From a virus, in IMG/VR virus record IMGVR_UViG_3300045988_083108, positions 1 through 46,317 of that record: DNA of 46,317 nucleotides; one strand, given 5' to 3'. Every line of letters begins with the position of its first letter. Position 1 is the stretch's first letter. Both the position numbers and the translations under genes were made by a program. Positions 25,275-46,317 of the stretch are shown here, one piece after another. The notes beneath the pieces are model-generated. The model ran no database searches and was not told where the DNA came from. It saw nothing but the letters and a program-made list of their open reading frames with translations.

Positions 25275-25279
25275 TAGGT

Positions 25280-27275: not shown

Positions 27276-27302
27276 GTGCGAGAGCAAACTATGGCAAGAT
27301 TG

Positions 27303-27331: not shown

Positions 27332-27357
27332 GTAAGCAAGCAAATGGGGGTGAACTA

Positions 27358-29040: not shown

Positions 29041-29134
29041 CTCTGATTTAAGATATTTCGCCTATCTTGCTGGCGTTTAACTGCAAGAGACTGTGGATTC
29101 ACAACACGTTTAAACAGTGGAAAGGAAAACTCTT

Positions 29135-29716: not shown

Positions 29717-29743
29717 ATCTAAGTTAAAGAGAGGAATCAGACA

Positions 29744-30766: not shown

Positions 30767-30799
30767 TCTAAGTCGGTATTAAGGAGTGAGAACAGAGTT

Positions 30800-31135: not shown

Positions 31136-31466
31136 AAAAAACAAGCGTAGCGTCTGGTTCTCAAATCCTGTTGTGTCTGGCGAAGATGAAACGGGCAACG
31201 ATGTATTAACATACAGCGACCCGATTCACGCCATGCTCAACATCTCCGCGCCAACGGGCTACGCATATGGAACAGAAAACGGCATGTGGCTTGGTTATGA
31301 TTATGTCATAACTGTGACTTGCAAAGAGTTTGGGTTACTGAACTTTGTAGAGGGGAAAACTCTTGTATGGCACAATAAGACACCGCAGGACGGCTCTGCC
31401 AACTTGATTGTTGACAGAGTTGCGGATAGCATAAATCAAGTCAGAATCGGTTTGAAGCATAGGTGA
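31122..31466 (+). CDS. Head-tail adaptor/head-closure candidate
   Basis: Size and position. Confidence 0.45.
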   Translation: MRSLEKNKRSVWFSNPVVSGEDETGNDVLTYSDPIHAMLNISAPTGYAYGTENGMWLGYDYVITVTCKEFGLLNFVEGKTLVWHNKTPQDGSANLIVDRVADSINQVRIGLKHR

Positions 31467-31471
31467 TTCCA

Positions 31472-32053
31472 ATGCCTAGTGTAAGGCGAGTATGGCTCGG
31501 AACAAAGGGAATAAAAGAGCTTGTGAAACAATATGACATCATGGCAAAGGATATTCAGAAATACACTGAATCCGCGCATGATTATGTTGTAGAACGCGCT
31601 AAAGCTGAATACTCCGACAGGCTTGCGGACGCGGATGGCGTGGACGTTGAGTGGCAGTCAACTGGCAAGAGTTACCGCGCACGAATTTACAATCACGACA
31701 TCAACGCAAAGTTTGTTGAGTATGGCACTGGTCTTAACGGTGTTGGTACATTCCCCGGTGGAAGCCCGAACCCAGAGGGCGGAACTTGGAATTATAATTC
31801 CGGCAAGCACTCCGGCAAGGACGAATATATTACAATGCAGAATGGAAAGATACTGCACGTTCCTTACGGACAGTGGATTCCACCCGGGGATATGCCATAC
31901 ACAGACCCAAAAACAGGTCAAAAGCACATTTTCACTTGCGGTCAAAAGGCTCAAGCGCCTATGTATCTGACCGTTCAAGAAGTCAAGAAAAATATGCCTA
32001 CATGGGTTCGCACATCTTTCGCGCAACATGGAATCCAGCTAAAGGAGAAGTAA
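31472..32053 (+). CDS. Neck/tail-joining protein candidate (HK97 gp10-like position)
   Basis: Start moved to ATG 31472 (RBS taggtg). Confidence 0.45.
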   Translation: MPSVRRVWLGTKGIKELVKQYDIMAKDIQKYTESAHDYVVERAKAEYSDRLADADGVDVEWQSTGKSYRARIYNHDINAKFVEYGTGLNGVGTFPGGSPNPEGGTWNYNSGKHSGKDEYITMQNGKILHVPYGQWIPPGDMPYTDPKTGQKHIFTCGQKAQAPMYLTVQEVKKNMPTWVRTSFAQHGIQLKEK

Positions 32054-32054
32054 G

Positions 32055-32462
32055 GTGGATATTAAAAATTATGAAATTGATATTCGTAAGTATCTTCTCT
32101 CGAAGCTGAAAGGCGAAGTTAGCGGCATTCGGGTTTATGCTGGTGCAAATACTGGCGACCCGCATTACCCAGCTGTTATTGTCACGCAGACAGACAGCAG
32201 TGCGCTAAGTTCCACTTATGATTCTGCCGGTTGGCATCATGTGCGTTATGCGTTTGATGTGAATGTATACACGCAAGGCGAGAATGACCGAGAAAATGCC
32301 GCTTCTATCGCAAATCTCGCGGCTAACGCAATGCAGGAATTGGGATTTCAAATGGATTCCCATGACCCAAATATTGGCGATAAGACGCAGAAATATCAAC
32401 GTGTAGTTATGCGTTTTACTGCCATCATTAACACTGAAACAGATACAACCTACAGGGGGTAA
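32055..32462 (+). CDS. Tail-completion candidate
   Basis: GTG start, RBS aaggaga; position. Confidence 0.45.
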   Translation: MDIKNYEIDIRKYLLSKLKGEVSGIRVYAGANTGDPHYPAVIVTQTDSSALSSTYDSAGWHHVRYAFDVNVYTQGENDRENAASIANLAANAMQELGFQMDSHDPNIGDKTQKYQRVVMRFTAIINTETDTTYRG

Positions 32463-32468
32463 AATTAA

Positions 32469-32888
32469 ATGGCTATTTCAAGCTATAACGTAGTTCTCAA
32501 AACCTCTGATACGGCTGCTGGCGCTTACACAGAACTGGTTGCCGTCAAGGACTTTCCTGACCTTGGCTCTGCCCCTGACACCATCGAAGTCACTACTCTG
32601 CGTGACAAGATGAAGCGGTACATTCAAGGTCTGCAAGATACTGGCAGTTTTGAGTTTACTTACAACTACACTAAGGCAGACTTCACAAAGGTAAAGGCTC
32701 TCGATGACAACGCACAGCATTTCTTTGAGCTGGATTTCGGCAATGACGGTGCTGGCGGTGAGGGTTCTTTCTACTTCTCCGGTCAGGTTTCTACTTATGT
32801 CTCTGGTGCTGGCACTGGCGCAGTTGTGGAAGCTAAGATTATCGTCACTTGCGATTCCGAGGTCAAGACCGAAAAGCCGTCTTCTTAA
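32469..32888 (+). CDS. Major tail protein
   Basis: YTELVAVKDFPDLGSAPDTIEVTTLRD pattern of TP901-1/phi13-type major tail proteins. Confidence 0.7.
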   Translation: MAISSYNVVLKTSDTAAGAYTELVAVKDFPDLGSAPDTIEVTTLRDKMKRYIQGLQDTGSFEFTYNYTKADFTKVKALDDNAQHFFELDFGNDGAGGEGSFYFSGQVSTYVSGAGTGAVVEAKIIVTCDSEVKTEKPSS

Positions 32889-33013
32889 CCAACAGCAAGG
32901 CGCTCTCCTGCGGAGTATGGGGAAATTCCCCTGCTCCGTGCCTTGCGCCCTTTGTTGGGCGAGGTGGGAGCGCCAAACTATAAAGCCTAACTCATAGTTA
33001 AAGGAGAGCAATT

Positions 33014-33334
33014 ATGAAAATTAACGGCAAAGACTTTTCCGTAATGGAAGTCACATTCAACCATGTTTGCGCACTTGAGGACATGGGCATCGACCTTGGC
33101 TCAAGTGGCAAAACTCTGTCTACGCTTCGCGCTTTCGTTGCGCTGGCTCTGGATGAGACTGTTGAGGAAGCTGGTGCTGACATTGAGAAGTACGTCGAGG
33201 AAGGGAACGACCTCAAGGAACTTGTCAGCGTTATGACTGAATCAATGGAGAAAAGCGGTTTTTTTCGCGCTCTCGCCAAGAAAGCAGACACGGGGAAAGC
33301 AACTGTGCAGAAAGTTCCCGAAAAGAAAGCGTAA
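33014..33334 (+). CDS. Tail assembly chaperone (gpG-like)
   Basis: Position between the major tail and tape-measure genes; acidic. Confidence 0.6.
   Translation: MKINGKDFSVMEVTFNHVCALEDMGIDLGSSGKTLSTLRAFVALALDETVEEAGADIEKYVEEGNDLKELVSVMTESMEKSGFFRALAKKADTGKATVQKVPEKKA
33259..33265 (+). promoter_or_regulatory. Candidate -1 programmed frameshift site T TTT TTT
   Basis: Seven T in the X XXY YYZ phase of the 33014 ORF; the -1 frame is open from 33241 into the 33346 ORF. Confidence 0.5.
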
Positions 33335-33345
33335 AATACAAAAAT

Positions 33346-33723
33346 ATGCGCGATGCCATCTATAAAGGGTGGCTACCGCAAGCATTGGCAATGGGGGTTG
33401 GGTATGACACATTCTGGTCGCTCAACCCCTTTTTGTTGCAACCTTTTTATGACGCTTTTAAGATAAAAACCGACCTGACGCTTGAAACGAACAATGTCTC
33501 CGCATGGCTTAACGGAGCGTATGTTCTTCGCGCTCTCGGTGCTTCTTTTGGCAAGACGGCATATCCAGACAAGCCCACAGAATTGAATTTGACTTCCAAG
33601 CCAGAGCAAGAAAAAACAGCTAGAATGAACGCGGATGCCGCTAAATTCTATGCTTGGTCTTTGGAGTGGAACAAGATGATTAAAGAAAAACATAAACGGG
33701 AGAGCGGTGAGATAAATGGCTGA
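33346..33723 (+). CDS. Tail assembly chaperone, frameshift-extension part (gpT-like)
   Basis: In the -1 frame relative to 33014-33334; no Shine-Dalgarno before ATG 33346. Confidence 0.55.
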   Translation: MRDAIYKGWLPQALAMGVGYDTFWSLNPFLLQPFYDAFKIKTDLTLETNNVSAWLNGAYVLRALGASFGKTAYPDKPTELNLTSKPEQEKTARMNADAAKFYAWSLEWNKMIKEKHKRESGEING

Positions 33724-36187
33724 TGACCTCGGTTTTGAAATTAACTCCGATGCTAGAGGTGCTATAAATGCTCTATCAGAACTTATGGATTCTCTTAGAG
33801 ATACAAGCAGAACACTACAAGACACGCTAAATGCAACTTCCCAAGGAAACATTGCGTCGTCAATCGCGGAGCAAGCAGAAGCCGCTCACGCAGCGTTAGA
33901 CGGTCTCGGACTTGATGAATTTGATTCTCAGGAAGCAAGACTTCAAAGCGCGGTTGCAAGCGCAAGCGCTGCATTTGAAAATCAAGCCGCAAAAATCAAC
34001 ATCCTCGCAGCAGAAATAGAACGCTTGGAATATCTGCAAGATGAAATTGATGATGACGATGATGCCGCTATGGATAGGAGCACTATTGCTTTAGCTAAAA
34101 AGCAGTTAGCGCTATCACAGGCACAGCAAAAGCTCGCTTCTTACGGCGTTCAACTTGAAGTTGCAAAACAGAAACTAGATGATTTTTACGATTCACAGGA
34201 AGAAGCAAATGATTCAGTTGAAGATATGGACGAGCCAGTAAAAAAGGCAACAAAAGAGAACAATACATTTCTTGCACAACTGGTTCGTTCTGTCAAAAAT
34301 ATCACATTCTATCGTATAGTTCGCGGCGTAATTAAGTCAATCACAAACGCTGCGAAAGAATCCGCAAACGCAATGGCCATTTGGTCGGAGCAATTTGACA
34401 CCGGTGCGACTGGTGCTATTGCCAGCTTCAATGACAACATTTCGTCCATTGCATCAAACTTGCTGTTTGCGCGTAATGCAATTATGGCGGCGGTAGAACC
34501 CATCATCTCCGCATTAACTCCCGCATTTAATATGCTTGCATCTGCTATCGCGAACGCATTTAATGTTCTTTCGCACTTCCTTTCCGCGCTAACTGGCCGT
34601 TCGTTCTATAACAAGGCAATTAAGAACAATGTCAACTACGCGAACTCTCTGAAATCTGGCAGCAAAGCTCAAAAAGCGTTTCTTGCTGGGTTTGACGAAC
34701 TCGAAGTTGTGCAAAGTTCGCAAGGCGGCGGCGCTGGCGGCACTCTTGGCGTTGACCCGTCTGCGATGTGGGAGCGTTCGGAAGTAGAAGATAGCATGAA
34801 GAGCCTGACAGAGCCGTTCCGTGCGGCACTAGATAGGATGCGTGCAATATGGGATGAACACTCCGAAGGTTTGAAGTCTGCCGCAGGTAATCTATGGCAA
34901 TCTATCGGAAATTTTGCAAAGACAGTCGATACATCGTTCTTTGAAAACTTCTTCGGAGAAGGCCGCATTGGTGCACTGCTGTTCAATGACGCATTGACGC
35001 ATCTTGAAGATACTATGAACGACCTATCAATCGTCATTAACAATATTATTGCTCCGTTCGCAAGCGGTTTTATTCAAGGATTCTCTGACGCTGCAACTGT
35101 GATTTACAAGTTTATAAGAGAAGCACTTGGCCCTGTTTATGACAAAATTCAAGATATTTTTGGCTTCATCGACGAGCACGGCGATACAATTTCTAAGATT
35201 TCGGAGAAAATTGGCTATGTTGCTGGCGTGATTGCAGCGGTTATTGCCGCAATTATGGCGGCTAAAGTTGCTATTTCTGCCGTTACGGTAGTTATCGGCG
35301 TGCTTACAAACCCTGTTGGTTTAGTTATCACCGCAATTGCTGCGCTTATTGCCATTTTCGTCAAGCTGTATGACGAAAACGAGGAATTTAGAAACTTCGT
35401 TGATGGCATCATTCAGTGGGCGAAAGAGATTATTCCTGGCATTATCCAAGGAATCCAAGACGCTTGGGCTGGATTTAAGCAGTGGTGGAAAGAAAAGTGG
35501 AATAGCGTCATTGACTGGTTTAAGGACATTTTCGGAATCCATTCTCCGTCCACTGTCTTTAAGGGCTTTGGCGAAAACATTGTCCAAGGTTTGACTAATG
35601 GCATTAACGGATTCATTGAAAAAGTCCGTAGCGCAATTAGAAAAGTCAAGGAAGCGCTCGACCTTTCCAAGATGAAAGAAACTGCCAAGGGCTGGGGTTC
35701 TGACTTTGTGCAGGGTTTGTCTGATGGTATCAGAAGGGCAAAGGAATTGGCAAAGAGCGCCGCTGACGCAGTTGCCCAAGGCATTGCATCTGTGCTTCAC
35801 TTCTCGCGTCCTGACGAGGGCGTTCTTCGCGATTACGAGAAGTGGATGCCGGATTTTATGCGCGGTCTTGCAAATGGTATTGACACTAACGCAGACTTGG
35901 TATATTCTAGTGTTAATAACCTTGCTTCTGGCATGAAGTCTGCAATGACAGTACCTATGCTCGGCGTAGGAAGCGTTTCTGGGCAGTTCGGCAACGACAT
36001 GGGTTCTTTCACGCAAGCACAAATGGACGCGAATGCAAGCCTTGCAGATGTGTTCTGGCAAGGGTGCATGGCTGTTGTTCAAGCAATCAATGACAATCAA
36101 CTCGAAGTTAGCATTGGCGATGATGTGATTGGCAAGGCGGCTTCCAGATACAATCGCAAACAAGCAGTAATCAATGGGGGTGCATAA
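33716..36187 (+). CDS. Tape measure protein
   Basis: 823 aa; helical, with hydrophobic central segments; position. Confidence 0.85.
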   Translation: MADDLGFEINSDARGAINALSELMDSLRDTSRTLQDTLNATSQGNIASSIAEQAEAAHAALDGLGLDEFDSQEARLQSAVASASAAFENQAAKINILAAEIERLEYLQDEIDDDDDAAMDRSTIALAKKQLALSQAQQKLASYGVQLEVAKQKLDDFYDSQEEANDSVEDMDEPVKKATKENNTFLAQLVRSVKNITFYRIVRGVIKSITNAAKESANAMAIWSEQFDTGATGAIASFNDNISSIASNLLFARNAIMAAVEPIISALTPAFNMLASAIANAFNVLSHFLSALTGRSFYNKAIKNNVNYANSLKSGSKAQKAFLAGFDELEVVQSSQGGGAGGTLGVDPSAMWERSEVEDSMKSLTEPFRAALDRMRAIWDEHSEGLKSAAGNLWQSIGNFAKTVDTSFFENFFGEGRIGALLFNDALTHLEDTMNDLSIVINNIIAPFASGFIQGFSDAATVIYKFIREALGPVYDKIQDIFGFIDEHGDTISKISEKIGYVAGVIAAVIAAIMAAKVAISAVTVVIGVLTNPVGLVITAIAALIAIFVKLYDENEEFRNFVDGIIQWAKEIIPGIIQGIQDAWAGFKQWWKEKWNSVIDWFKDIFGIHSPSTVFKGFGENIVQGLTNGINGFIEKVRSAIRKVKEALDLSKMKETAKGWGSDFVQGLSDGIRRAKELAKSAADAVAQGIASVLHFSRPDEGVLRDYEKWMPDFMRGLANGIDTNADLVYSSVNNLASGMKSAMTVPMLGVGSVSGQFGNDMGSFTQAQMDANASLADVFWQGCMAVVQAINDNQLEVSIGDDVIGKAASRYNRKQAVINGGA

Positions 36188-36189
36188 CA

Positions 36190-36588
36190 ATGGCAAGTCC
36201 GCTTGACAGACCGCTGTCAACGCAATTTTTCGTTGATGGAACGCCCCTGTATGAGCCTGATGCTGACGGCGGCATTCAGATGGAATGGAACTCCATTGCC
36301 GCAGAGGGGTCTGGTCGCACACAAGATGGAGTTATGCACATCGAGTGGGTCAAACGGAGAATCCCTAAAGCGAAGTTCTCTTACAAGGCTGTTACTAAAG
36401 AGCAGTTAGCTTACATGAATAACCTTGTTCAAGGCAAGACGTTCCAGTTTACTTGCCCGAAAGAGAACGGAACTTTGGAGACGTTTGAAGCATATTGCTC
36501 CACTTCAAGCGGTTCTTCTTACAGCACATATTTTTACAATGGGCTGTATAGGGATTTTAAGTTTGACATTATCGGCACAGGAGCGTAA
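36190..36588 (+). CDS. Distal tail protein-like (short)
   Basis: Position directly after the tape-measure gene. Confidence 0.45.
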   Translation: MASPLDRPLSTQFFVDGTPLYEPDADGGIQMEWNSIAAEGSGRTQDGVMHIEWVKRRIPKAKFSYKAVTKEQLAYMNNLVQGKTFQFTCPKENGTLETFEAYCSTSSGSSYSTYFYNGLYRDFKFDIIGTGA

Positions 36589-36619
36589 AATAAGAATAAC
36601 AAGAACGGTGGTGTTTTAG

Positions 36620-38449
36620 ATGTTTCAAGATAAGTTTGTTTTAGCGGACGGAACAGCGCTTCAAAGCAACATTGTTGGCGTTGACTGGACTACTTCATCA
36701 AACTCTGACAGTGACATCGCACCCGGTTCTGTGTGCGCGAGCGCTGTTGAGATTGAGTTTTGGGTCAATTCCGACAGCGCTCTTAGCGTAACGCAAGGAA
36801 CGGTATTGACATATTACAAGGTTTACAAGGCCGATAACGAACTTGACATAGAAACAAAAATTGGCGTTTTTACATGCGACAAGCCAGAAAAGACAGGTTC
36901 AAACAAGTATAAAGTGACGGCCTATGATAACGTCTCGCTGCTTGATGTTGATGTCACAGAATGGCTCAATGCGCTTACTTTTCCAATCACAATTAAAGAC
37001 TTCGCAACGGCGCTTGCCGCTAAGTGCGAGTTGGAGCTTGCGAACGAACCTCGTCTGAATAAAGACTACCAAATTCAGAAGTTCACTGGTTCTGGCGTTA
37101 ATGCTAGAGACTTGATGAAAATGGTGTGTTCTGCGTCCGGCTGCTTCTGCAATGCAGATGCTAATGGCAAACTTTTATTTGACTGGTACAAGAAAAACGA
37201 TAGAGTAATAATTTCTCCCAAAAAGAGCATTAACGAAAAGTCTTTCCATCTGTTTGATGTAGTTAATAGAAGTCTGCAAGACAATGTTCATCGCGTGCTT
37301 ATTTCTGCAAAATCAGGTAGCGACACGCCTGATGGAATCCCTTACTTTGCGAATCAGTTGACTTTCTCGGACTTCGTTGTAAAGGCTATTGATAAAGTAC
37401 AAGTTAGGCAATCTGATGATGATGTCGGCGTTATTTATCCGGCTGACGAGCAAGGCACTAACGCACTTGTCATTCAAGGTAATCAGCTTCTTTCAACAAC
37501 TTCCGATGCGGCACTACGTCCGTATGTCAAGAATCTGTACGATGGTCTGAATAACATTACCTATGTTCCCTGTTCAAATATTCAGACACCGGAGACACTT
37601 GAAATCAAGGTTGGCGATATTGTAACCGTAAGTGACGGGAAAAATGAGTTCGACACTTGGATTACAAGTGTAAAGCACAGTGGCGGTAAATGCACTTTTG
37701 AGAGCGTTGGTAATGCTAACCGCAACACGACTACTGCTGTGAATAACGTCAAATACAACTCGAAGCAAAGGATTCTTAAAATCTCTGCAACGGTTGATGG
37801 CCTTGCCGTAAAGGCTGAACAAACAGCGCAAGACATCAGTGGACTAAGTTCACAATACACGCAACTAAAACAAACTTTTGACAAGTTTGAAGTGACAGCC
37901 GTTACAGATGGAAATGTTCGCTCTAAGTTCGCACTTGATTCAAGTAATTGTACAATCACGAGCGGTATTATTACATTCAATTCAAACTCTCTTGTTGTAA
38001 ACAGTGATAACTTTAAATTAACGCAAAATGGAACTGTCACAGCAACTGGGTATTTCACATCAAAAACAGATTCAAACTCTGTTATTTTGGGAAACGGACA
38101 TGTTTCAATAGAAAGGAAACTGGGTGACGGAAGTTGGAGACGCGCTGCAACGCTAATCGGATACGGAAGCAATGACGCGCAAGCTCAACTCCAAATGTAT
38201 GCAAATAACAGCTTGCAAGTTTTAATGCAGTCATCTTTTACAGGTAGTGAACTGTATATGTATCATGCAAGTAATGTTGTGCATACAGAAATAAAATCCG
38301 TAAACGGCGCTGGTTCAATTTGGCTTCGCTATTCAGACGGAAGAAGTTTGTTTCATGTGTACAATGACCCAAATACGGGTCGTCCTCATGTTGTATTTGA
38401 CGGAGAGCTTGAGTGCAAGTCGATAAAAAGAAACGGTCAGCCTATTTAA
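36620..38449 (+). CDS. Tail-associated (Tal/baseplate hub-like) protein
   Basis: 609 aa; position. Confidence 0.55.
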   Translation: MFQDKFVLADGTALQSNIVGVDWTTSSNSDSDIAPGSVCASAVEIEFWVNSDSALSVTQGTVLTYYKVYKADNELDIETKIGVFTCDKPEKTGSNKYKVTAYDNVSLLDVDVTEWLNALTFPITIKDFATALAAKCELELANEPRLNKDYQIQKFTGSGVNARDLMKMVCSASGCFCNADANGKLLFDWYKKNDRVIISPKKSINEKSFHLFDVVNRSLQDNVHRVLISAKSGSDTPDGIPYFANQLTFSDFVVKAIDKVQVRQSDDDVGVIYPADEQGTNALVIQGNQLLSTTSDAALRPYVKNLYDGLNNITYVPCSNIQTPETLEIKVGDIVTVSDGKNEFDTWITSVKHSGGKCTFESVGNANRNTTTAVNNVKYNSKQRILKISATVDGLAVKAEQTAQDISGLSSQYTQLKQTFDKFEVTAVTDGNVRSKFALDSSNCTITSGIITFNSNSLVVNSDNFKLTQNGTVTATGYFTSKTDSNSVILGNGHVSIERKLGDGSWRRAATLIGYGSNDAQAQLQMYANNSLQVLMQSSFTGSELYMYHASNVVHTEIKSVNGAGSIWLRYSDGRSLFHVYNDPNTGRPHVVFDGELECKSIKRNGQPI

Positions 38450-38471
38450 ACTTAGACAAGGAGAGACTATT

Positions 38472-38723
38472 ATGTCTGATAACGAACTCATTATTCAGCT
38501 TCAAACCAATGTTCTGAACGCAATAAATTCTTCACAGATGCCGCTTATGGTAAAGTCCTTGGTTGTAGAAAATGCTCTTTTGAAACTTAACGCAGAGTTA
38601 AAGAATGAGCAAATCGCAAACCTGCAAGCTAACCAAGAAGTGAATTTGCACGTAGATACGTTGGAAATGAACACAGGCACGAAAGACAAACAAGCAGAAG
38701 CAGAAGAAGCAGAAAAGGAGTGA
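38472..38723 (+). CDS. Hypothetical protein
   Basis: ORF, RBS aaggagag. Confidence 0.6.
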   Translation: MSDNELIIQLQTNVLNAINSSQMPLMVKSLVVENALLKLNAELKNEQIANLQANQEVNLHVDTLEMNTGTKDKQAEAEEAEKE

Positions 38724-38728
38724 TTTTC

Positions 38729-39382
38729 ATGCTTTTTGACGGTAGAAATAGAATCCGTTTCCCGTACTCGCGTTATGGCTATACGCGAGGGAACGGCAAG
38801 GTCTGGCACGGTGGCGCTGATGTTGACGGCCTTGACGATTCAATTATTCACTTTCCGCGATATGCAGACAAGAGCATTTCCGGCACAGTAGTGACGGCAA
38901 GAATTGTCACAGACAAGCGAAACAGGACATGGGAATGGGGCTATTATGTCTGCGTTAAGCTGGACGCGAACCAAACGCCCGATGTTGTGAACTACCTTTA
39001 TTTTTGCCATTGCGAGAAACTCTTGGTTAAGGTCGGGCAGAAAGTTAAAAGTGGAGACCCGATTGCCGTTATGGGAAACACTGGAAATGCGGCACTTGCC
39101 AACCCGCCTTTCAAGCATTGCCACTTTGAGGTTCGCGCATCTGCCACTGGCAAAGGTCTTGACCCTACAAAATACATCGGCTTTGCGAATGCTGTCGGCG
39201 TATATGATTCGGAAGTAGAGGTAGAAAAGAACGACATCCCAGAAGTAAACGAGCCAAAGTACAAGTTACAGATGATTACCATTGGCCCTGTTTCACAAGG
39301 CGATGCAGATAAAATCTACGCCACAGCAAAAGAACTATGTTTAACAGAACAAGGGCTTTACAAATCTGAATGGGTAGAGTAA
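38729..39382 (+). CDS. M23 family metallopeptidase with the C-terminal 43-aa duplicated module
   Basis: WHGGADVD (HxxxD) and HCHFEV (HxH) motifs; start moved to ATG 38729; module at 39251-39382. Confidence 0.75.
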   Translation: MLFDGRNRIRFPYSRYGYTRGNGKVWHGGADVDGLDDSIIHFPRYADKSISGTVVTARIVTDKRNRTWEWGYYVCVKLDANQTPDVVNYLYFCHCEKLLVKVGQKVKSGDPIAVMGNTGNAALANPPFKHCHFEVRASATGKGLDPTKYIGFANAVGVYDSEVEVEKNDIPEVNEPKYKLQMITIGPVSQGDADKIYATAKELCLTEQGLYKSEWVE

Positions 39383-39457
39383 AATGAACGTAATAGCATT
39401 AAGCTGTTGCTTCGTTATTGGTGCAGCACTATTTATTATTAGGGGTGGTGAGACTGA

Positions 39458-39832
39458 ATGCCCGAAGGTTATCAATTAAAATATTCTGGTGAAAAGATTG
39501 ACACGCTTCTCGAAAAAATTGACGGTATCAAAGACCAGTTTAAGACAGTCACCGCTACATTTACCGTGGATGGCTGGACGGCGGAAAACGGCAAGTACAC
39601 GCAGAGTAAGACTGTCACAAACAGTAAGACATTTACGATTAAAAACGTTCTGCCACCTTTGACAACGCAGACGGGCAACGCCAACACAGATGCCACAAAG
39701 CGCCGCAATCTTGGAACGATTGCTAGGGGAACAACAGAGTTTACAGTGACGGCAAGCAACATCACGGTAAAAATCACCGCCGACACTAAGCCTGACTGCG
39801 ACTTGGACGTTACGTGGCACTTAGAGGTGTGA
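39458..39832 (+). CDS. Hypothetical beta-rich tail-accessory protein
   Basis: ORF, RBS aggggtggtga. Confidence 0.6.
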   Translation: MPEGYQLKYSGEKIDTLLEKIDGIKDQFKTVTATFTVDGWTAENGKYTQSKTVTNSKTFTIKNVLPPLTTQTGNANTDATKRRNLGTIARGTTEFTVTASNITVKITADTKPDCDLDVTWHLEV

Positions 39833-39834
39833 AC

Positions 39835-40254
39835 ATGAAAATTTACGATGCAACACTTGAGCACGAGTTGCAAAACCCCGACATGACGCTCGGCAAGTTA
39901 GAAACTGCGAAACGTGTCACGGTGCATCACGAAGCTGTACCCGCATCCGTGCGGTATGAAGTAATGACAAGAACGGTCACTGCCGATTTCCCAGATGGGC
40001 TTCGGCAGGAAATCACAACTCCAGCACAGGACGCATGGGACGAGTACGAAGAAGTGCATCGGTATGTGCCGTACACCGATGCGGAACTTGCGGATATTGC
40101 AGAAAAGGCACAAGCAGAAAAAGATGCCGCCGATGCTGCCGCCAAGGCTTCCGAGCAAGCCGCCAAAGAGGAAGAAGCGCGCCGCGATGCCGCCGAAAAA
40201 CTTAATGCGCAGGTAACATACACTGCAATGATGACAGGCACAATGATTCCCTAG
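39835..40254 (+). CDS. Hypothetical protein (XkdW-like position)
   Basis: Start moved to ATG 39835; lies directly before the XkdX-like gene. Confidence 0.5.
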   Translation: MKIYDATLEHELQNPDMTLGKLETAKRVTVHHEAVPASVRYEVMTRTVTADFPDGLRQEITTPAQDAWDEYEEVHRYVPYTDAELADIAEKAQAEKDAADAAAKASEQAAKEEEARRDAAEKLNAQVTYTAMMTGTMIP

Positions 40255-40264
40255 GAGAACTGAA

Positions 40265-40396
40265 ATGTACGAAAAAATTAAACTTTGGCATAAAAAAGGC
40301 TGGTGGACAGAATCTATGGTTGCTCAAGCCGTCAGGAAGGGGCTGATTACCAAAGAACAGTACAAAGCCATTGTGGAAGGGACAGAAAATGAGTAA
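40265..40396 (+). CDS. xkdX: XkdX family protein, 43 aa
   Basis: Hand-translated [43 protein letters not shown]; RBS aggaga; matches the XkdX pattern. Confidence 0.7.
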
Positions 40397-40820
40397 TTTT
40401 ATGGGAGTGGGGATGCAAGAACTCCCCATTGGGTATATTTTTGAATTTGACCCAACTGGAATCTCAGATGCACCAGATTTAAGCACGCCAGAAAAAGTGC
40501 ACAATTATTTTGGTTATGGCACGTGGGAACGGTACGGAACTGACAGGGTGACGGTTGGCGCTGGCGGAGAGTATAATGCGGGTAGTATTGGCGGTGAGAA
40601 GGAGCATACACTGAATATTGCAGAGATGCCGTCCCATCAGCATCAGCTCCACGGATGGGCAATCAGCTTGGCATCCAGCGCATCAACGCAATATGCACCA
40701 ACTCACCCCTACGACAAGTACGACAACACAAATCTTACGACCCGTCCAGTGGGTGGAGGTCAGCCTCACAATAATATGCAGCCATACATCGGCACTTACC
40801 GTTACCGCCGCATTGCGTGA
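40389..40820 (+). CDS. Phage tail-collar domain protein
   Basis: [18 protein letters not shown] and [12 protein letters not shown] motifs; start moved to ATG 40389. Confidence 0.7.
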
Positions 40821-40821
40821 A

Positions 40822-40980
40822 ATGAGAACCGCTAACAAAGAAGTTGATGAGCCTAAGTCCAAGTTACAGCTAATCTCTGTCGGGCCGGTTTCGCAGGGTG
40901 ACGCTGATAAAATTTATAGTCTCTGCAAGGAACTTGGCCTTGTGGAGAAAAATCTCTATAAATCCGAGTGGGTGGAATAA
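40822..40980 (+). CDS. 52-aa protein consisting of the duplicated module alone
   Basis: ATG lies 1 nt after the collar-gene TGA. Residues 10-52 share 32/43 identities with the M23 C-terminus by hand alignment. Confidence 0.5.
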   Translation: MRTANKEVDEPKSKLQLISVGPVSQGDADKIYSLCKELGLVEKNLYKSEWVE

Positions 40981-40981
40981 G

Positions 40982-43276
40982 ATGCACGTTATAAAACTGA
41001 ATGGTTACAATGCCACAACAGAGAATGGTGAAAAGCTGGAACTCGGCACATTTAACAGCTATGGAGAGGAACAACTTCAAATTGTTGAAGCGCCAGATTG
41101 GGTAAATTTAAGCGTAATAGCGACATTTAATCCCCCAAACAAAAAGCCTGTTCAAGTTGCTGTTGATTCCATTACCGGCGTTATCAAAGTTCCGAAGGAA
41201 GCTACGGCTGATTTGTACGGCGTTGGAACGATTGTGTTTGTAGGTCTTGCAAACGGCGTACAGCGCATCTCTGCCGATTGTGAATACATCGTAAGGAAAC
41301 ACTCAAATGCAAGCGGTACAGAGCCAGCAGAGCCTACACCCGACCTGCTACAACAGGTTTTAACTCTAAGTAAGGACGCACAGACCGCCGCCAAGAACGC
41401 AGAGCAAAGCGCAAAAAATGCCGCGAAGGATGCGGCGGACACTGTAAAGCCTTACAAGGAAGAAGCTGTACAGGCGGCAACAGCTGCGGCTTTGAGCGAA
41501 AAGAACGCGGCAGAAAGCAAAGCAGCTGCACAGGAAGCTGCCGAACGTGCCACACAAGCAGGCATTGCGGCAAGTAACGCCGCCGAAGAAGCAGAACGTT
41601 CAGCAGGTATCGCCACAGACGCGGCAGGTGGCAGCGCCCTGAACGCAGAAAATGCACATAAAAGCGCTTTGAACGCACAGCAGAGTGCAAATAATGCCGC
41701 AGAAAGCCAGAGTGCGGCAGAGGCAAGCGCCGAATCCGCAGAAAGAAATGCCGAGCAAACGGCAACCGATGCGAAAACCGCAACCGATGCTAAAGTTGCG
41801 GCAGCGGGCAGCGCCGATGCTGCGGCAGGTTCAGCTAATGCGGCGGGCAATTCTGCAAGCGCTGCGGCGAGAAGTGAACAGGCGGCAGGGGCATCGGAAG
41901 TAAAAGCTGCTGAAAGTGAAAAGGCCGCAAAGGCGAGTGAGCAAGCTGCGGCGGAATCTGCACAGGCCGCGCTGGAAAGCAAAACAGCAGCGGCAACCAG
42001 CGAGGTAAACGCTGCCGCAAGTGCAAAAAAGGCACAGGACGTTGCCGATAGCTTGCCCGAAGATTACACGACAGCAGTAAATGATATTGCTACGCTGAAA
42101 CAGCAGGTGGCAAACATCACGCCCGATGACAGCGCCATTGGCGGCAAGCCGTGGAGCAGCAAGCGCATCATTGATATGTTCTGCCCGCCTCTGGAAGAAA
42201 GCGGCAACCCTGTTGTGTGCTACCCTGTGGCGGGGTATCCACTGGGCGTGAAAGCAAAGTGGGAACCCATGCAGGAAGGCAGCGGAACACCCAGCCCCGA
42301 AAACATTCGTCCCATCAAGGGACGTGACAGCGTGATGGTGGAGCGGTGCGGGGAGAATCTCTTTAATAGAGATGGATTGGTAGTTGGCGCACCAGTTTAC
42401 GGTGAGAATGGAACTATATCATCATACGAAGATGTCGCTGTTTCTTACGTAAAAGTTGTTCCAGGCGCACAATACTCGATTCGTTTGAGGCAAACAGACG
42501 ACACAATTCTGTATACTCGCATTGCTTTTTTGACGAAAAGCAAGAAGTTTATCAAGCGTGCATATATGCTTAACACAAAACATGGTATGGAATCCGAGAA
42601 AACATTCACAGTCTCAACCGACTGTGAATGGATTCAATTTGGGCTGAATAACGGGATAACATTTAACTACAATTTTGATGTCGTTTTCGTTGCTGGAAGC
42701 GCCCCCACCGCCTACATTCCATACACGGGGCAAACCAACACCCTGACCCTGCCCGAAACCGTGTATGGCGGTGAGGTGGACGCGGTGACGGGTGATGGGC
42801 AGGAGACGTGGAAAATACTGACGTTAGACGGAACAGAGCGGTGGATGGACAACGGCTCCGTCCCGAGCACAAAACAGCAGCAATGGGCATTATATGGAAT
42901 ACTAGAACCTTATTCTGCGGTTTTGGGAATTTCAAGCCATTTTGATAACCAAAAAAAATTTAATGAATATCCGTTTAACTTTGTACGCATTTCTTCTACA
43001 TCCGTCGTACTTCACGTGGCCTCAGATGGACCTTTCGCAACAGTCAATGATTTGAAATCCTACCTTGCCGCCCAGTACGCCGCAGGAACACCCGTGCAAG
43101 TCTGCTACAAGCTGAAAGAGCCTGTGCCCTTCACCGCGACAGGCGCACAGCCGTTGCCAGCGCTTGTAGGAGTAAACACCGTGCTGACAGATGCCGACAG
43201 CGCGACTGTGACGGGACGCGCAGACCCCATTAAGCGAATCACCGATTTGGAAGATGCGGTGGCATCTCAAACATGA
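40982..43276 (+). CDS. Tail fibre with an Ala/Ser/Glu-rich repeat shaft and a C-terminal receptor-binding-type domain
   Basis: Start moved to ATG 40982; about 230 aa of SA..A/AE..A periodic repeats (41340-42040). Confidence 0.7.
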   Translation: MHVIKLNGYNATTENGEKLELGTFNSYGEEQLQIVEAPDWVNLSVIATFNPPNKKPVQVAVDSITGVIKVPKEATADLYGVGTIVFVGLANGVQRISADCEYIVRKHSNASGTEPAEPTPDLLQQVLTLSKDAQTAAKNAEQSAKNAAKDAADTVKPYKEEAVQAATAAALSEKNAAESKAAAQEAAERATQAGIAASNAAEEAERSAGIATDAAGGSALNAENAHKSALNAQQSANNAAESQSAAEASAESAERNAEQTATDAKTATDAKVAAAGSADAAAGSANAAGNSASAAARSEQAAGASEVKAAESEKAAKASEQAAAESAQAALESKTAAATSEVNAAASAKKAQDVADSLPEDYTTAVNDIATLKQQVANITPDDSAIGGKPWSSKRIIDMFCPPLEESGNPVVCYPVAGYPLGVKAKWEPMQEGSGTPSPENIRPIKGRDSVMVERCGENLFNRDGLVVGAPVYGENGTISSYEDVAVSYVKVVPGAQYSIRLRQTDDTILYTRIAFLTKSKKFIKRAYMLNTKHGMESEKTFTVSTDCEWIQFGLNNGITFNYNFDVVFVAGSAPTAYIPYTGQTNTLTLPETVYGGEVDAVTGDGQETWKILTLDGTERWMDNGSVPSTKQQQWALYGILEPYSAVLGISSHFDNQKKFNEYPFNFVRISSTSVVLHVASDGPFATVNDLKSYLAAQYAAGTPVQVCYKLKEPVPFTATGAQPLPALVGVNTVLTDADSATVTGRADPIKRITDLEDAVASQT

Positions 43277-43289
43277 AAGGAGTAATAAA

Positions 43290-43538
43290 ATGGTTATCAA
43301 GAGTAAAGCGCGGCACGATTTAACATTGCGCAGTATTAAGCGAGAGATTGCAGCAGGACGCGACGTTGCGTTTTGGCTCGATAAAGCGTACACGCACCTT
43401 GACAATGGCCTGCTGACCGAAGATGACATTGCAGAGGTGGAGACGCTTGCGCAGGAATACTACGATGCGCTGGACGCTGCATCTAACGCAACCTCGGAAA
43501 ATGCCGAAACGAATGAGCAGATTGAAAATGACGCTTGA
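43290..43538 (+). CDS. Hypothetical protein
   Basis: Start moved to ATG 43290 (RBS aaaggag). Confidence 0.55.
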   Translation: MVIKSKARHDLTLRSIKREIAAGRDVAFWLDKAYTHLDNGLLTEDDIAEVETLAQEYYDALDAASNATSENAETNEQIENDA

Positions 43539-43586
43539 CAACTTCGAGCTGGTATGCTACACTACAATAAAAAGAGGTGATACAAG

Positions 43587-43859
43587 GTGGATATTTTCAT
43601 GAATGTTGCTTCGATGGCATCTATTACCGCCATTGTTGAGCTTATCGCGTATGCGTACAAGACAAAGACCTCGGCAGACAATAAGTGGATTCCTGTCATC
43701 TGCATGATTGCTGGCGCAATTCTTAGCATTGCTGCTTGGGTTGTTTACCCGGCTATTTACCCTGCCACGGATGCGTTTACCGCGTGCGCAATGGGTATTG
43801 GCTCTGGTGCAACGGCAGTTGCACTGTATGAGGGCATTTTCAAGTCCTCTAGTAAATAA
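43587..43859 (+). CDS. Holin candidate (three hydrophobic segments)
   Basis: GTG start, RBS agaggtg; 90 aa; charged C-terminus. Confidence 0.6.
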   Translation: MDIFMNVASMASITAIVELIAYAYKTKTSADNKWIPVICMIAGAILSIAAWVVYPAIYPATDAFTACAMGIGSGATAVALYEGIFKSSSK

Positions 43860-43874
43860 TAGGGGTGTTTGAAG

Positions 43875-44102
43875 ATGCGCACTAAGAAAGCAGAAATTGC
43901 AAGTCAAAAGCAAATCGGTGATGCAGAGCCGATTGCTGTTTCTACTGACGTAGTTCCTGATGAAGTTATGCCGGTAGAAGATATTCCTCAAGCGAAAGAG
44001 TATCAAGTCTTTGTTCGATTCGCAAGCCGCGAAAATGCAGAGAACTTTAAGTTCAAGTTAAAGTCTCTTGGCTACGACAATGCAGAGTTGAGCGAGGTGT
44101 GA
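43875..44102 (+). CDS. Small protein with a possible SPOR-like half-domain
   Basis: YQVFVRFASRENAENFKFKLKSLGY loosely resembles SPOR (y.Vq.GaF....nA......L...G). Confidence 0.4.
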   Translation: MRTKKAEIASQKQIGDAEPIAVSTDVVPDEVMPVEDIPQAKEYQVFVRFASRENAENFKFKLKSLGYDNAELSEV

Positions 44103-44105
44103 CTT

Positions 44106-44315
44106 ATGCCGACAGAGATTGCCCAAAACGTTTACATGAACTACGGCGTTCTCGGCTGCGTTATTGTGTCGTTTTTCATCCTGATTTGGTGGGTCGTTAA
44201 GACTTCCAAGGAACGTGAGGATAAGCTATACGGCATAATTGAAACCCTTTCAAAGGAGCTTCCCGAAATTCGAAAAAACCTTGAAGAAATCAAGGACAAA
44301 CTGTTTGATGATTAA
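44106..44315 (+). CDS. bhlA: BhlA/UviB-family holin-like protein
   Basis: 69 aa; one N-terminal TM followed by the charged helix KEREDKLYGIIETLSKELPEIRKNLEEIKDKL. Confidence 0.6.
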   Translation: MPTEIAQNVYMNYGVLGCVIVSFFILIWWVVKTSKEREDKLYGIIETLSKELPEIRKNLEEIKDKLFDD

Positions 44316-44327
44316 GGTGTGAATCCA

Positions 44328-44633
44328 ATGGATGTTGATACAAAGCTGGACATGGTGAAAGACCCTACCAGCGGGACAGATAATTACATTTCACAGTTTG
44401 TGTTTGAATCTTGCGAAATGCGTCACGAGAAGCGCGAGAAGCGATATTTTTCGATTATCGTTCTGCTTATTGTCCTGCTTGTTGCAACAAATGTTGCGTG
44501 GCTGTTCTATGAAGCACAGTTCCAAGTGCAGACATCAGAAACAGTTACAACCACTACAACGCAAACAGTTGACGCAACACAAGAAACTGCTGATGGCGAT
44601 GCAAGCCTTGACGTTACGGCGGGTGGTGATTAA
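44328..44633 (+). CDS. Single-pass membrane protein with a Thr-rich ectodomain
   Basis: Start moved to ATG 44328. Confidence 0.5.
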   Translation: MDVDTKLDMVKDPTSGTDNYISQFVFESCEMRHEKREKRYFSIIVLLIVLLVATNVAWLFYEAQFQVQTSETVTTTTTQTVDATQETADGDASLDVTAGGD

Positions 44634-45020: not shown

Positions 45021-45503
45021 GTGCAGATGCCTATGTATGGCTCACCTATGGGCTACAATCAACCGTATGGCGGCTGGCAAGCCCCACAACAGCTTTATCA
45101 ACCGCAGACGAATAGTTTTATGCCTAAGGCACAGAACGCCCAAGACGGCCTAAATCAGGGCTATGGCTCAATGCCTTGGATTTTTGTTTCCAGTGAGGAA
45201 GATGCGAGAAATCGCATTGTTCAGCCAAATCAAACAGCTTGGTTCATGGATAACAACAATCCGTACTTCTATGTGAAGTCTTGCGATGTTTCCGGCGCTG
45301 TCACATTCAAGAAATTCAAGTTCTCCGAAATGTCTGGCGAACCGGCTACCGATTGTAGGCAGTTGGACGAGGGCAAAATCCGTCAAATTGTAGATGAACG
45401 GCTCAACGAATTATTGAATATTAAGGGAGATGTGAAGAATGAATCCTCTGACTTCTCTGTTCCAACAGGCGAACGCCGCGTCAACACCAAATCCGCAAAG
45501 TAA
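45021..45503 (+). CDS. Hypothetical protein with a Q/P/Y/G-rich N-terminus
   Basis: GTG start, RBS gaggtg with a 7-nt spacer. Confidence 0.6.
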   Translation: MQMPMYGSPMGYNQPYGGWQAPQQLYQPQTNSFMPKAQNAQDGLNQGYGSMPWIFVSSEEDARNRIVQPNQTAWFMDNNNPYFYVKSCDVSGAVTFKKFKFSEMSGEPATDCRQLDEGKIRQIVDERLNELLNIKGDVKNESSDFSVPTGERRVNTKSAK

Positions 45504-45675
45504 CCCAATGCAAATGATTCAGATGCTTGGCCAAGTGAAGCAGATGGTCGGTTCTCGGAATCCGAGTGCTGTGGTTGACGAACTTGTAAAGACAGGCAGA
45601 TTCAGCCAACAGCAAGTAGACCAAGCGAAAAAGATGGCTGAACAGATTTACCCGCAAGTAAAGAGTTTCCTTTAA
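45439..45675 (+). CDS. Small helical hypothetical protein, 78 aa
   Basis: RBS aagggaga; overlaps the preceding ORF by 65 nt in the +1 frame. Confidence 0.5.
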   Translation: MNPLTSLFQQANAASTPNPQSNPMQMIQMLGQVKQMVGSRNPSAVVDELVKTGRFSQQQVDQAKKMAEQIYPQVKSFL

Positions 45676-45750
45676 CTCGCAGTTAAGCAGTAGTGCGCAA
45701 TATTGCTTTTCTCAAATACAAAATTTTATGTATGAAAGGTGGAACTTCTC

Positions 45751-46317
45751 ATGGCAATGGAAGATTCTAGCATGATGTCCCCTGCCGACATTGCCGCTCT
45801 GACCCGTGGCAACACTGGTTTTGGTGGCGATGGCATTTCTTGGCTGGTGCTGATTCTGCTGTTCTTTGGCTTCATGGGCGGCGGCTGGGGTGGCCGTTAT
45901 GGCAACGGCGAACTCGGCCAGTACGCTACTGCGGCTTCCCAGCAGGACATTCTGTTCGGTCAGCACTTCGGTCAAATCAATGACCGCCTGACCAACATCG
46001 GCAACGGCGTTTGTAGCCTTGGCTACGATATGCAGGGCAACATCGGTCAGCTCGGCAAAGAGATTGCGCTCGGTCAGGCTAACTTGCAGTTGCAGGCCAG
46101 CAACAACACTTATGCGCTGTCTAATCAGCTGTCCAACTGCTGCTGCGAAAACCGTCTGGCTTCTGCCCAGCTTGGCGCACAGATTGACAAGCAGACTTGC
46201 GACATCAATGCCAACATTGATGCTAAGTTTGCCGAACTGCAAAAGGGCCAACTGGAACAGACCATCGCGGCACAAGCGCAGCGCATTAACCAGCTTGAAC
46301 TTGCCCAGCAAATGTGC
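45751..46317 (+). CDS. 5' part of the junction-spanning gene: Gly-rich TM segment, Q/N/L-rich coiled region, CCCENR motif (217 aa once joined to 56-142)
   Basis: ATG 45751, RBS gaaaggtgg; open to the window end in frame. The track shows only an antisense shadow ORF here. Confidence 0.7.
   Translation, partial: MAMEDSSMMSPADIAALTRGNTGFGGDGISWLVLILLFFGFMGGGWGGRYGNGELGQYATAASQQDILFGQHFGQINDRLTNIGNGVCSLGYDMQGNIGQLGKEIALGQANLQLQASNNTYALSNQLSNCCCENRLASAQLGAQIDKQTCDINANIDAKFAELQKGQLEQTIAAQAQRINQLELAQQMC
46263..46317. repeat. Second copy of the 55-bp terminal overlap
   Basis: Identical to bases 1-55. Confidence 0.97.

Follow-up and report, generated by a model that had tools for sequence, protein, structure and literature searches.

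The window analysed here is a stretch of 46,317 nucleotides (nt) of viral DNA, corresponding to positions 1 to 46,317 of the IMG/VR record IMGVR_UViG_3300045988_083108. A cassette of five genes, g1 to g5, follows its holin and lysis genes and a small gene coding for a helix-turn-helix (HTH) protein of the sigma-70 region 4 type. An earlier note, made from the sequence alone, had described five co-oriented open reading frames (ORFs) after the lysis genes as a possible undescribed phage-borne system. The five ORFs are all present on the plus strand, and together they are a real, conserved and self-contained accessory operon of tailed phages of strictly anaerobic gut Firmicutes, with an invariant core, g1-g2-g3, followed by two exchangeable positions, slots 4 and 5. 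The label "undescribed phage-borne system" is still a fair one. Literature searches brought up no account of the module and no virion proteomics of the phages that carry it, including the Butyrivibrio virus Ceridwen. For comparisons, 46 loci were fetched from IMG/VR and 28 from a genome collection, and iterative hidden Markov models (HMMs) were run over 78 loci; L-numbers below denote loci of relatives compared with the window.

The cassette crosses the ends of the record. The first 55 bases of the window are identical to the last 55 (1-55 and 46263-46317), so that the circle comprises 46,262 bp, not 46,317, and the "junction" of the window is an artefact, a 55-bp assembler overlap of a circular contig. 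After removal of the duplicate, g3 codes for a protein of 217 amino acids (aa), and a false 197-aa product is obtained if the raw join is read through. Any ORF read over the raw junction comes out wrong in the same manner.

The first gene of the core, g1 (45021-45503, plus strand; 160 aa), starts with a GTG codon 7 nt after GAGGTG. Its Q/P/Y-rich character, noted earlier, was confirmed for residues 1-52, 75% of which are Q, P, Y, G, M or N. Beyond this head, the family alignment indicates a small conserved beta-type domain (~53-104) and then a C-terminal helix. The protein matches phrog_21718 (E=2.8e-12; unknown function), and searches of Pfam with g1 and 23 relatives, or of the PDB with the g1 profile, returned nothing meaningful. 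The second gene, g2 (45439-45675, plus strand; 78 aa), overlaps g1 by 65 nt and codes for a protein rich in Met, Gln, Asn and Pro, residues that make up 36-52% of the sequence in seven family members. By an analogy of our own, this composition may be likened to that of Met-rich domains binding hydrophobic helices. The protein matches phrog_22984 (E=1.7e-8; unknown function), and homologues occupy the equivalent slot in myovirus prophages, in Ceridwen and in Clostridium perfringens phages. As a separate observation, the proteins P0130, P0123, P0172 and P0174 are ~97% identical to g1 in one part and ~96-99% identical to g4 in another, which implies deletion or fusion variants devoid of g2-g3, or chimeric assemblies.

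The core protein g3 is split by the ends of the window, with residues 1-189 encoded at 45751-46317 and the 3' part at 1-142 (both plus strand). In the latter, positions 1-55 are the duplicate, and the new sequence at 56-142 codes for a conserved tail and the stop codon (140-142). With 30 Gly, 8 Cys and one hydrophobic helix, g3 fits its initial description as a Gly-rich, membrane-helix-containing, Cys-rich protein. A short, acidic N-terminal tail with a conserved S-x-x-D-I-A-A motif precedes the single hydrophobic helix, which is flanked by Gly runs (~29-46; KD19 maximum of 1.83 at residues 24-42). This is followed by a long helical region that holds an invariant CCC motif (130-132) and by a conserved non-helical tail, GVV(R/K)YP..Y.Y.AG.SPFCG..C. 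The usable part of an AlphaFold2 (AF2) model of g3 consists of the helix boundaries, predicted at residues 11-19, 29-42, 66-163 and 168-188. The protein matches phrog_16490 (E=3e-19; unknown function), and analyses of g3 and 52 diverse relatives against Pfam yielded nothing meaningful and no holin family. A 31-residue match of the g3 profile in the PDB, to AhlC, a component of a pore-forming toxin (E=0.028), was marginal and was treated as noise. No hydrophobic segment or obvious export signal was found in g1, g2, g4 or g5, and no lipobox gene lies within the cassette.

The fourth gene, g4 (235-663, plus strand), codes for a 142-aa stand-alone jelly-roll of the TNF/C1q type. Its AF2 model, built on a 37-sequence alignment, is a ten-strand beta sandwich with a predicted local distance difference test score (pLDDT) of 87 and a predicted template modeling (TM) score of 0.79, in which the jelly-roll spans residues 5-141 and a variable loop carries a CxCxC motif (residues 49-53). 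The best match in a Foldseek search of the PDB was the C-terminal domain (CTD) of BclA (1wck; E=1e-7, TM scores of 0.77/0.81, 20% identity), followed by BxpB (8d02; TM score of 0.80), ExsFA (7r5i) and F-BclA-CTD, before 4-1BBL and C1q-like domains. In BFVD, the best matches were stand-alone gut-phage proteins of 130-150 aa (TM scores of 0.85-0.90), two of which are named "BclA protein," and next came the C-terminal knobs of collagen-repeat phage proteins. Sequence comparisons were less telling, in that g4 gave no match at E<=1 to Pfam models, including BclA_C (PF18573), and hhalign found no significant match to ExsF (probability of 6%) or to F-BclA-CTD. A homologue 38% identical to g4 (L047:10718-11119) matched BclA_C over its full length (E=1e-4), with 22.6 bits for a cut-off of 38. 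GXY collagen repeats and an N-terminal exosporium leader were both absent from g4. Model and structural matches agree with the BclA-CTD/C1q likeness proposed earlier, and the predicted fold can confidently be called a TNF/C1q jelly-roll of the BclA-CTD/ExsFA kind.

In the loci compared, the position downstream of g3 is occupied by a BclA-like protein in 42 cases and by another beta-rich, Cys-containing protein in ~31. The latter proteins have 110-140 aa, an N-terminal M-x-C-x-C or CxxxCxxC motif and more Cys residues near the C terminus. This Cys-beta family found no match in Pfam (8 proteins; neither DUF3992 nor DUF4183), in a PDB profile search or in an hhalign comparison with Ena2A, and hhalign was also negative between it and the g4 family. 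Every slot-4 variant has vicinal or clustered Cys residues (CxC, CC or CxxxCxxC), at differing positions.

The last gene, g5, codes for a 180-aa four-helix protein of the ferritin family. We placed its start at the ATG codon at 669 (669-1211, plus strand) because this codon lies 10 nt after AAGGAG, the GTG at 660 being too close. The single sequence did not match Pfam Ferritin. A profile built from five sequences matched prokaryotic ferritins of the PDB over ~135 residues (query 3-139) with E=1e-6 to 1e-5, the best being 5ls9 (1e-6) and 1z4a/1vlg (3e-6 to 8e-6). At the positions of the ferroxidase center, which we take to be E17, Y24, E50, H53 and others in Escherichia coli FtnA numbering, the PDB alignment shows Q (for E17), H (for Y24), EE and S (for H53) in g5. 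These incomplete ligands make catalysis doubtful. The homologue of a C. perfringens phage retains E-D-x-x-H. Judged by these profile matches, g5 is a true ferritin homologue with an incomplete ferroxidase center, in line with its earlier description as ferritin-like. In the loci compared, slot 5 contains a two-helix protein of ~100 aa in 37 loci, a g5-type ferritin in 11 and DUF7841 in 8. Among the ~100-aa proteins, 6 of the 16 scanned matched Pfam Rubrerythrin (best 1.6e-6); the family also matched helices A-B of BfrB (9e-5), and it has invariant D, Y, E and H residues arranged as D/E...Y...E-x-x-H. Comparison of the g5 and half-ferritin families by hhalign was negative. The exchanges at slots 4 and 5 are thus like for like, a small Cys-bearing beta protein in the former and a ferritin-like helical protein in the latter.

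Taken together, none of g1 to g5 matched a characterized virion, lysis, replication or defense family. Pfam and NCBIfam returned nothing for the five, and PADLOC-DB v2, searched with g1 to g5 and the upstream HTH protein (hereafter u71), no defense HMM match at E<=0.01. PHROGs matches were limited to families of unknown function. The claim that none of the five has a recognizable virion, lysis or replication function therefore held.

Evidence that the block is more than a chance neighborhood came from its gene order, which is kept in dozens of divergent loci. The HMMs detected g3 in 76 of the 78 loci, g1 in 68, g4 in 42, g2 in 31 (probably too low a count for so short a protein), g5 in 13 and the u71 family in 36. 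Spacing relative to the g3 start is fixed, with g1 at ~-600 to -800, g2 at ~-250 to -300 and slot 4 at ~+650 to +770. The order recurs in siphovirus- and myovirus-type phages and prophages of Clostridia. All 10 close relatives (L001-L010) carry the cassette, and the five slots are also found, in like order and spacing, in the prophages L047-L050, whose genes for baseplate J, a sheath initiator and Mu Gp48 mark them as being of the myovirus type. In these prophages the cassette has a GH25 lysis module on one side and an integrase gene on the other, the latter directly adjacent in L048 and L049. The encoded proteins are 30% (g1), 34% (g2), 66% (g3) and 38% (g4) identical to those of the window, and the fifth gene codes for a 112-aa helical protein. 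Among upstream genes, the commonest Pfam families (112 proteins from ~36 non-redundant loci) are small HTH/Sigma70_r4 proteins and holins (Hol44, holin_1, Dp-1), and peptidoglycan-binding/endolysin domains and baseplate and tail-end proteins are also common.

Cultured phages carry the cassette as well. Butyrivibrio virus Ceridwen, which grows lytically on Butyrivibrio fibrisolvens, a host not known to form spores, has homologues of g1 (1e-19), g2 (7e-15), g3 (5e-21) and g4 (9e-15) after its endolysin gene. This phage was seen in lytic growth only, and its authors deem it virulent (PMC7372960). The C. perfringens phage XP41-N3 encodes g1 to g3 along with a Cys-rich beta protein and a homologue of g5, and additional g3 homologues are found in CPD1, vB_CpeS-17DYC, HMD-PC1, PMQ04 and CPQ4. 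Contigs of 120-917 kb assign the cassette to Dysosmobacter, Bulleidia and other Firmicutes. A few cassette contigs are binned as Alphaproteobacteria, an assignment to be read with the caveat that binning of phage contigs is unreliable. In one of them (L074), the cassette is followed by genes for a lipoprotein that has a membrane helix at its C terminus and for a lysozyme, which suggests a diderm host. All samples are of gut, rumen or fecal origin.

The g3 family reaches further than the rest. We found 2,578 homologues in a set of 5.8 billion proteins, none with a name or a Pfam domain, which form 1,178 clusters at 50% identity (E<=1e-3), all stand-alone proteins of ~80-270 aa. Members occur in many Crassvirales, where depositors labeled them "spike protein/glycoprotein" or "viral fiber"; in Bacteroides phage C3_41T2LP (HMM 5e-16), beside recombination genes; and in two viruses with Methanomassiliicoccales as the record host (HMM 5e-9), whose record labels the gene phrog_16490. 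As g3 is the only component recognizable outside Firmicutes phages, any cross-phylum claim is restricted to it.

Comparison of the window with six close relatives revealed an allelic island, in which the C-terminal half of g3 and g4 are exchanged between phages nearly identical elsewhere. Nucleotide identity falls to 49-67% from ~46080, in the middle of g3, to ~700, at the end of g4, whereas it is 93-100% outside the island and at least 96% again past ~700. Between close relatives, protein identity is 91-100% for g1, g2 and g5, compared with 69-79% for g3 and 65% for g4. This island suggests a specificity determinant. We considered receptor masking tied to the tail fiber and rejected it, since L001 has the g3 and g4 alleles of the window but the C terminus of its fiber is only 49% identical.

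A scan of the whole window for terminator-like hairpins delimited the block. The tail/holin operon is closed by T1 (44950-44983, plus strand; 15-bp stem, T-run, -20.4 kcal/mol), which ranks first, as had been stated for the terminator after the lysis genes. The second-ranking hairpin, T2 (182-207, plus strand; 11-bp stem with 8 G-C pairs, T-run, -19.7 kcal/mol), was absent from the earlier note; g1-g2-g3 thus has the top two terminator-like hairpins of the window at its ends. The end hairpin placed at 1221-1254 was found at 1221-1248 (T3) and is bidirectional (-16.0 and -15.5 kcal/mol), being common to the convergent genes g5 and 1215-1538 (minus strand), and it closes the g4-g5 unit. The block is therefore separate, co-oriented and bounded by terminators, as described, but it does not hold as a single block of five, since T2 divides it into two units, g1-g2-g3 and g4-g5, and slots 4 and 5 are exchangeable around the g1-g3 core. 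A hairpin at this place is a recurrent trait, with a GC-rich hairpin within 130 nt of the g3 stop codon in 60 of 65 distinct spacers, 48 having a T-rich tail, compared with 36 of 130 control coding sequences evaluated by the same criteria.

A few bases upstream of T2 lies a small 4-bp hairpin, CGCC-N5-GGCG (160-172, plus strand), of a kind that often precedes the post-g3 terminator and recurs in L002, L013, L047, L062 and other spacers. It appears to follow the pattern CGCY-N5-RGCG with compensatory variants, CGCC/GGCG versus CGCT/AGCG, and it could be a putative protein-binding or attenuator element; Rfam gave no match over the g3-g4 spacer region that includes it. At the other end of the core, T1 is followed by a perfect TATAAT hexamer (44990-44995, plus strand), 25 nt upstream of the g1 start. 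No matching -35 element was recognizable and the promoter scan made no call there, so that TATAAT may be regarded at most as a possible factor-dependent promoter. The 71-aa protein u71, encoded just upstream (44721-44936, plus strand), resembles sigma-70 region 4 HTH proteins (Pfam Sigma70_r4, E=1.2e-4, below the gathering score), and its family is found upstream of g1. This makes it a candidate dedicated regulator that would travel with the cassette.

How might these proteins work together? We propose that g3 is a scaffold in the cytoplasmic membrane, which would expose its short acidic N-tail on the outside and its helical, Cys-rich part on the inside. Because g1, g2, g4 and g5 have no hydrophobic segment or obvious export signal and the N-tail of g3 is short and acidic, the simplest topology places the helical, Cys-rich part of g3 and all of its partners on the cytoplasmic side. 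There g1 and the Met/Gln-rich g2 would be putative dedicated partners of g3. Recurrent Cys clusters, together with a partner of the ferritin type, point to a chemistry of thiols or metals; the slot-4 protein may bind the distal part of g3 via thiol or metal links, and the ferritin-like protein may service the chemistry of this connection. More speculatively, the resulting membrane-anchored stalk-and-knob complex could be a specificity determinant in recognition or conflict, with candidate roles in excluding related phages or discriminating against them, or in controlling a late step at the envelope. We give a probability of roughly 35% to this reading, a Cys/metal-linked membrane complex with a role in recognition or conflict. 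A number of observations weigh against it. TNF-fold knobs are typically extracellular or virion borne. The positive-inside rule is ambiguous for g3, with one Arg on each side of the hydrophobic helix, and the AF2 model of g3 (28-sequence alignment) reached a pLDDT of only 39.9. The g3 tail is conserved regardless of the slot-4 type, which argues against allele-specific docking, and the C-terminal half of g3 is separable from g4, since L008 and L009 have g4 proteins 99% alike and different g3 C-halves. Allelic diversity admits several readings, of which a conflict role is only one. Lastly, no relatives of g1, g2, slot-4 or slot-5 proteins were detected in the Crassvirales, Bacteroides-phage and Methanomassiliicoccales-virus genomes that contain g3, where the neighbors differ.

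The main rival is that the cassette encodes an accessory fiber or decoration of the virion, with g3 as a coiled-coil stalk whose hydrophobic N-terminal segment is buried in the particle or held soluble by g2, g4 as a distal ligand-binding knob and the island as the determinant of specificity for host or environment, e.g., for glycans. The g4 fold is indeed used at the tips of collagen-like phage fibers and in the exosporium nap, a hypervariable island is typical of receptor-binding genes, and the cassette, itself in late orientation, comes after the genes for the tail fiber and lysis. Structural genes surround or adjoin it in L043 and cr116_1, and depositors labeled the crAss homologues "viral fiber/spike." However, a conserved, Gly-flanked hydrophobic helix resembling a membrane segment is unusual for a fiber, the two strongest terminators set the unit apart, fibers offer no precedent for a ferritin homologue or for a Met/Gln-rich mini-protein, and the g3/g4 alleles of L001 do not track its tail-fiber allele; we regard this explanation as possible, if rather unlikely. 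The holins or endolysins that adjoin the cassette in most contexts bring to mind a late module of lysis or redox control, i.e., a membrane-tethered Cys/di-iron complex that, in strictly anaerobic hosts, tunes the triggering of the holin or acts as a sensor of oxygen, iron or redox state. The N-terminal hydrophobic helix and coiled coil of g3 resemble the BhlA/XhlA-type lysis proteins of the same loci, slot 5 is filled by ferritin or rubrerythrin-type proteins, and the sources are restricted to anaerobe habitats (gut, rumen, fecal). This alternative appears doubtful, as hypervariability and a set of five proteins would be unusual for lysis regulators, g5 has an incomplete set of ferroxidase ligands, g3 of C3_41T2LP is beside recombination rather than lysis genes, and g3 has no Pfam holin match, its AhlC match in the PDB being marginal. 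A bolder version, to which we attach little probability, makes g3 the hub of a module spread over the gut virome, in phages of Firmicutes and Bacteroidota and in viruses with Methanomassiliicoccales as the record host. In these viruses of strict anaerobes it would be a switch responsive to redox, oxygen or iron that acts on a late step, be it lysis, exclusion or particle stabilization. The membrane-anchored Cys cluster of g3 (CCC and the C-terminal CxC...C) would then probably be metal bound in an oligomeric coiled coil and coupled to the di-iron/ferritin protein, and the exchangeable TNF-fold or Cys-beta subunit would confer specificity.

The earlier note had placed the block in a classic slot for morons and lysogenic conversion and had likened its proteins to spore-surface or cell-envelope proteins of Firmicutes more than to phage proteins. 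On this reading, the cassette would be a lysogenic-conversion moron whose products decorate the envelope of cells or spores in a sporulating Firmicute. Structurally, g4 comes closest to proteins of the exosporium (BclA-CTD, BxpB/ExsFA, F-BclA), and exosporium and coat proteins are also Cys rich and assembled in the cytoplasm. The layout, a -10 element and a terminator on either side, is like that of a moron, and an integrase gene adjoins the cassette in L048 and L049. Nevertheless, all relatives that could be detected are encoded on contigs of phages or prophages and g1 to g3 each match a PHROG family, so that the comparison with spore-surface proteins was not upheld. The lysogenic-conversion slot fared no better: all 10 close relatives carry the cassette, which is thus not sporadic, it is present in the lytic Ceridwen and on contigs binned as Bulleidia and Proteobacteria, and g3 is found in Crassvirales and in viruses with an archaeal record host. 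With this distribution, a spore- or lysogen-specific role cannot be general. As g4 also has neither a collagen stalk nor an exosporium leader and export signals are missing from all of the proteins but one, we consider the spore-envelope proposal highly improbable. It is also unlikely, in our view, that there is no system at all and that five unrelated small accessory genes are co-inherited at a permissive site. Such a site would be in keeping with the unrelated families that hold slots 4 and 5 in different phages, the internal terminator that parts g1-g3 from g4-g5, the homing endonucleases inserted within the block and the presence of g3 alone outside Firmicutes phages. Against this, the order and spacing of g1-g2-g3-slot 4 are kept down to ~30% protein identity and across virion types, and the replacements at slots 4 and 5 are alike in kind.

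We then compared the cassette with known systems. Morons, as defined by Hendrix and colleagues, are autonomous promoter-gene-terminator insertions in phage late regions. The cassette resembles them by its location at the end of the late region, by g1-g3 lying between strong terminators and by the -10 element after T1, but it differs by encoding several proteins, by showing no presence/absence polymorphism in the 10 close relatives and by its occurrence in distant and lytic phages. Superinfection-exclusion (Sie) membrane proteins, such as lactococcal Sie2009, T4 Imm and HK97 gp15, act alone or paired. Like them, the cassette offers a single-pass membrane protein, an accessory position, high allelic diversity and occurrence in temperate and lytic phages; however, they show no homology to its products, and known Sie proteins have no TNF-fold or ferritin-like partners. 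The N-terminal membrane helix and coiled coil of g3, and the holins nearby, are reminiscent of BhlA/XhlA and i-spanins, the latter also containing Cys, but the sequences showed no relationship, a lipoprotein partner is absent, and g3 is longer, with the invariant CCC and the conserved non-helical tail. The g4 model superposes on 1wck, 8d02, 7r5i and 9h38 and, like ExsFA/BxpB, a trimer of the basal layer of the Bacillus exosporium that docks leader peptides, is a stand-alone domain of ~140 aa. It differs from BclA in being phage encoded, in phages of non-sporulating hosts, and in having neither collagen repeats nor a leader. The operon context of g5, with a membrane/coiled-coil protein, is not that of iron storage ferritins, and the ~100-aa slot-5 proteins of other cassettes are akin to half-ferritins of the rubrerythrin/encapsulated-ferritin type. 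S-Ena and F-Ena endospore appendages are built from small beta-sandwich subunits that are Cys cross-linked or hook linked, with BclA-type tip fibrillae (bioRxiv 10.1101/2025.02.11.637640). The Cys motifs of the slot-4 Cys-beta proteins recall the N-terminal connectors of Ena, and BclA-type knobs are found in both systems; however, as noted above, the Cys-beta family showed no relationship to Ena2A by hhalign and no match to DUF3992 or DUF4183.

Neither the core nor the ensemble matches a characterized family, a defense system or a described phage module, and the TNF/C1q and ferritin folds are found here in an unprecedented context, although the function may fall in a known class such as exclusion or fiber. 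The g3 family, with >1,000 clusters at 50% identity, recurs in gut, rumen and fecal viromes and in cultured phages of Butyrivibrio, C. perfringens and Bacteroides, yet has no Pfam model, name or phenotype. The combination of a Cys-rich membrane/coiled-coil scaffold, an exosporium-type TNF protein, a ferritin protein and a bounded allelic island has no described counterpart in phages. Solving its function could add a new class of device for phage-host or phage-phage interactions, or could instead clarify the handling of thiols and iron by virus particles or infected cells in strict anaerobes. As cultured carriers exist, the question is directly testable.

Several loci contain additional genes in or next to the cassette. 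L001 has a 219-aa protein, by eye an endonuclease of the AP2/HNH type, between g3 and g4 (L001:8752-9411), its sole difference from the window there. A similar 264-aa homing-endonuclease-like protein follows g4 in Ceridwen (L080:6157-6951), and an I-HmuI-like gene lies right before g3 in Bacteroides phage C3_41T2LP (L083:4270-4890). In Caudoviricetes sp. vir215, whose record host is Methanomassiliicoccales, a reverse transcriptase gene, probably from a diversity-generating retroelement, is located between a tail protein gene and the g3 homologue (L082:3152-4186). Small HExxH metallopeptidase-like proteins, one of them annotated as a PolyVal metallopeptidase, are recurrent neighbors of the g3 homologue in loci of Crassvirales, of Bacteroides phage and of some Firmicutes phages (L079:4441-4788, L079:7021-7416, L043:9995-10381, L083:7770-8234). 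In a Logan contig (ERR12641343_52816, L084; corresponding to window positions 44585..62), u71-g1-g2-g3 (g3 residues 1-191) is inverted, the g3 tail is replaced by antisense sequence and the upstream membrane protein is truncated. An invertible switch was considered and rejected, as there are no flanking inverted repeats, the g3 tail is destroyed and the arrangement was seen in one assembly only; L084 is probably a defective variant or a misassembly.

Upstream of the cassette, the window contains a gene for a 792-aa tail-fiber-like protein (40898-43276), a small gene (43254-43538), a Hol44-type holin gene (43587-43859; Pfam 4.6e-8), a weakly BhlA-like holin gene (44106-44315) and a membrane protein gene (44319-44633). 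No canonical endolysin was found beside these holin genes (43587-44633). The sole recognized peptidoglycan hydrolase is an M23 peptidase in the tail module (38720-39382; precomputed Pfam annotation of identical contigs), and a 465-aa protein (22354-23751, minus strand) has a weak SH3 match. Homologues of the L048 integrase and of the L047 GH25 lysin were not found in the window. A megablast search with its first 25 kb against 50,697 phage records identified no near-identical phage. With a large terminase (25280-26989, minus strand), an SPP1-type portal (27358), a DnaB helicase and a thymidylate synthase, the rest of the genome is typical of a tailed phage. The 792-aa tail-fiber-like gene is mosaic between close relatives, with 49-92% identity by segment, and in the myovirus prophage L048 a collagen-repeat version of it and a small partner lie after the lysis genes, directly before the cassette (L048:6681-8700). 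Three tRNA genes (18749-19397, minus strand; Rfam RF00005, 62.7, 62.2 and 44.2 bits) form a cluster where the blocks of plus- and minus-strand genes meet.

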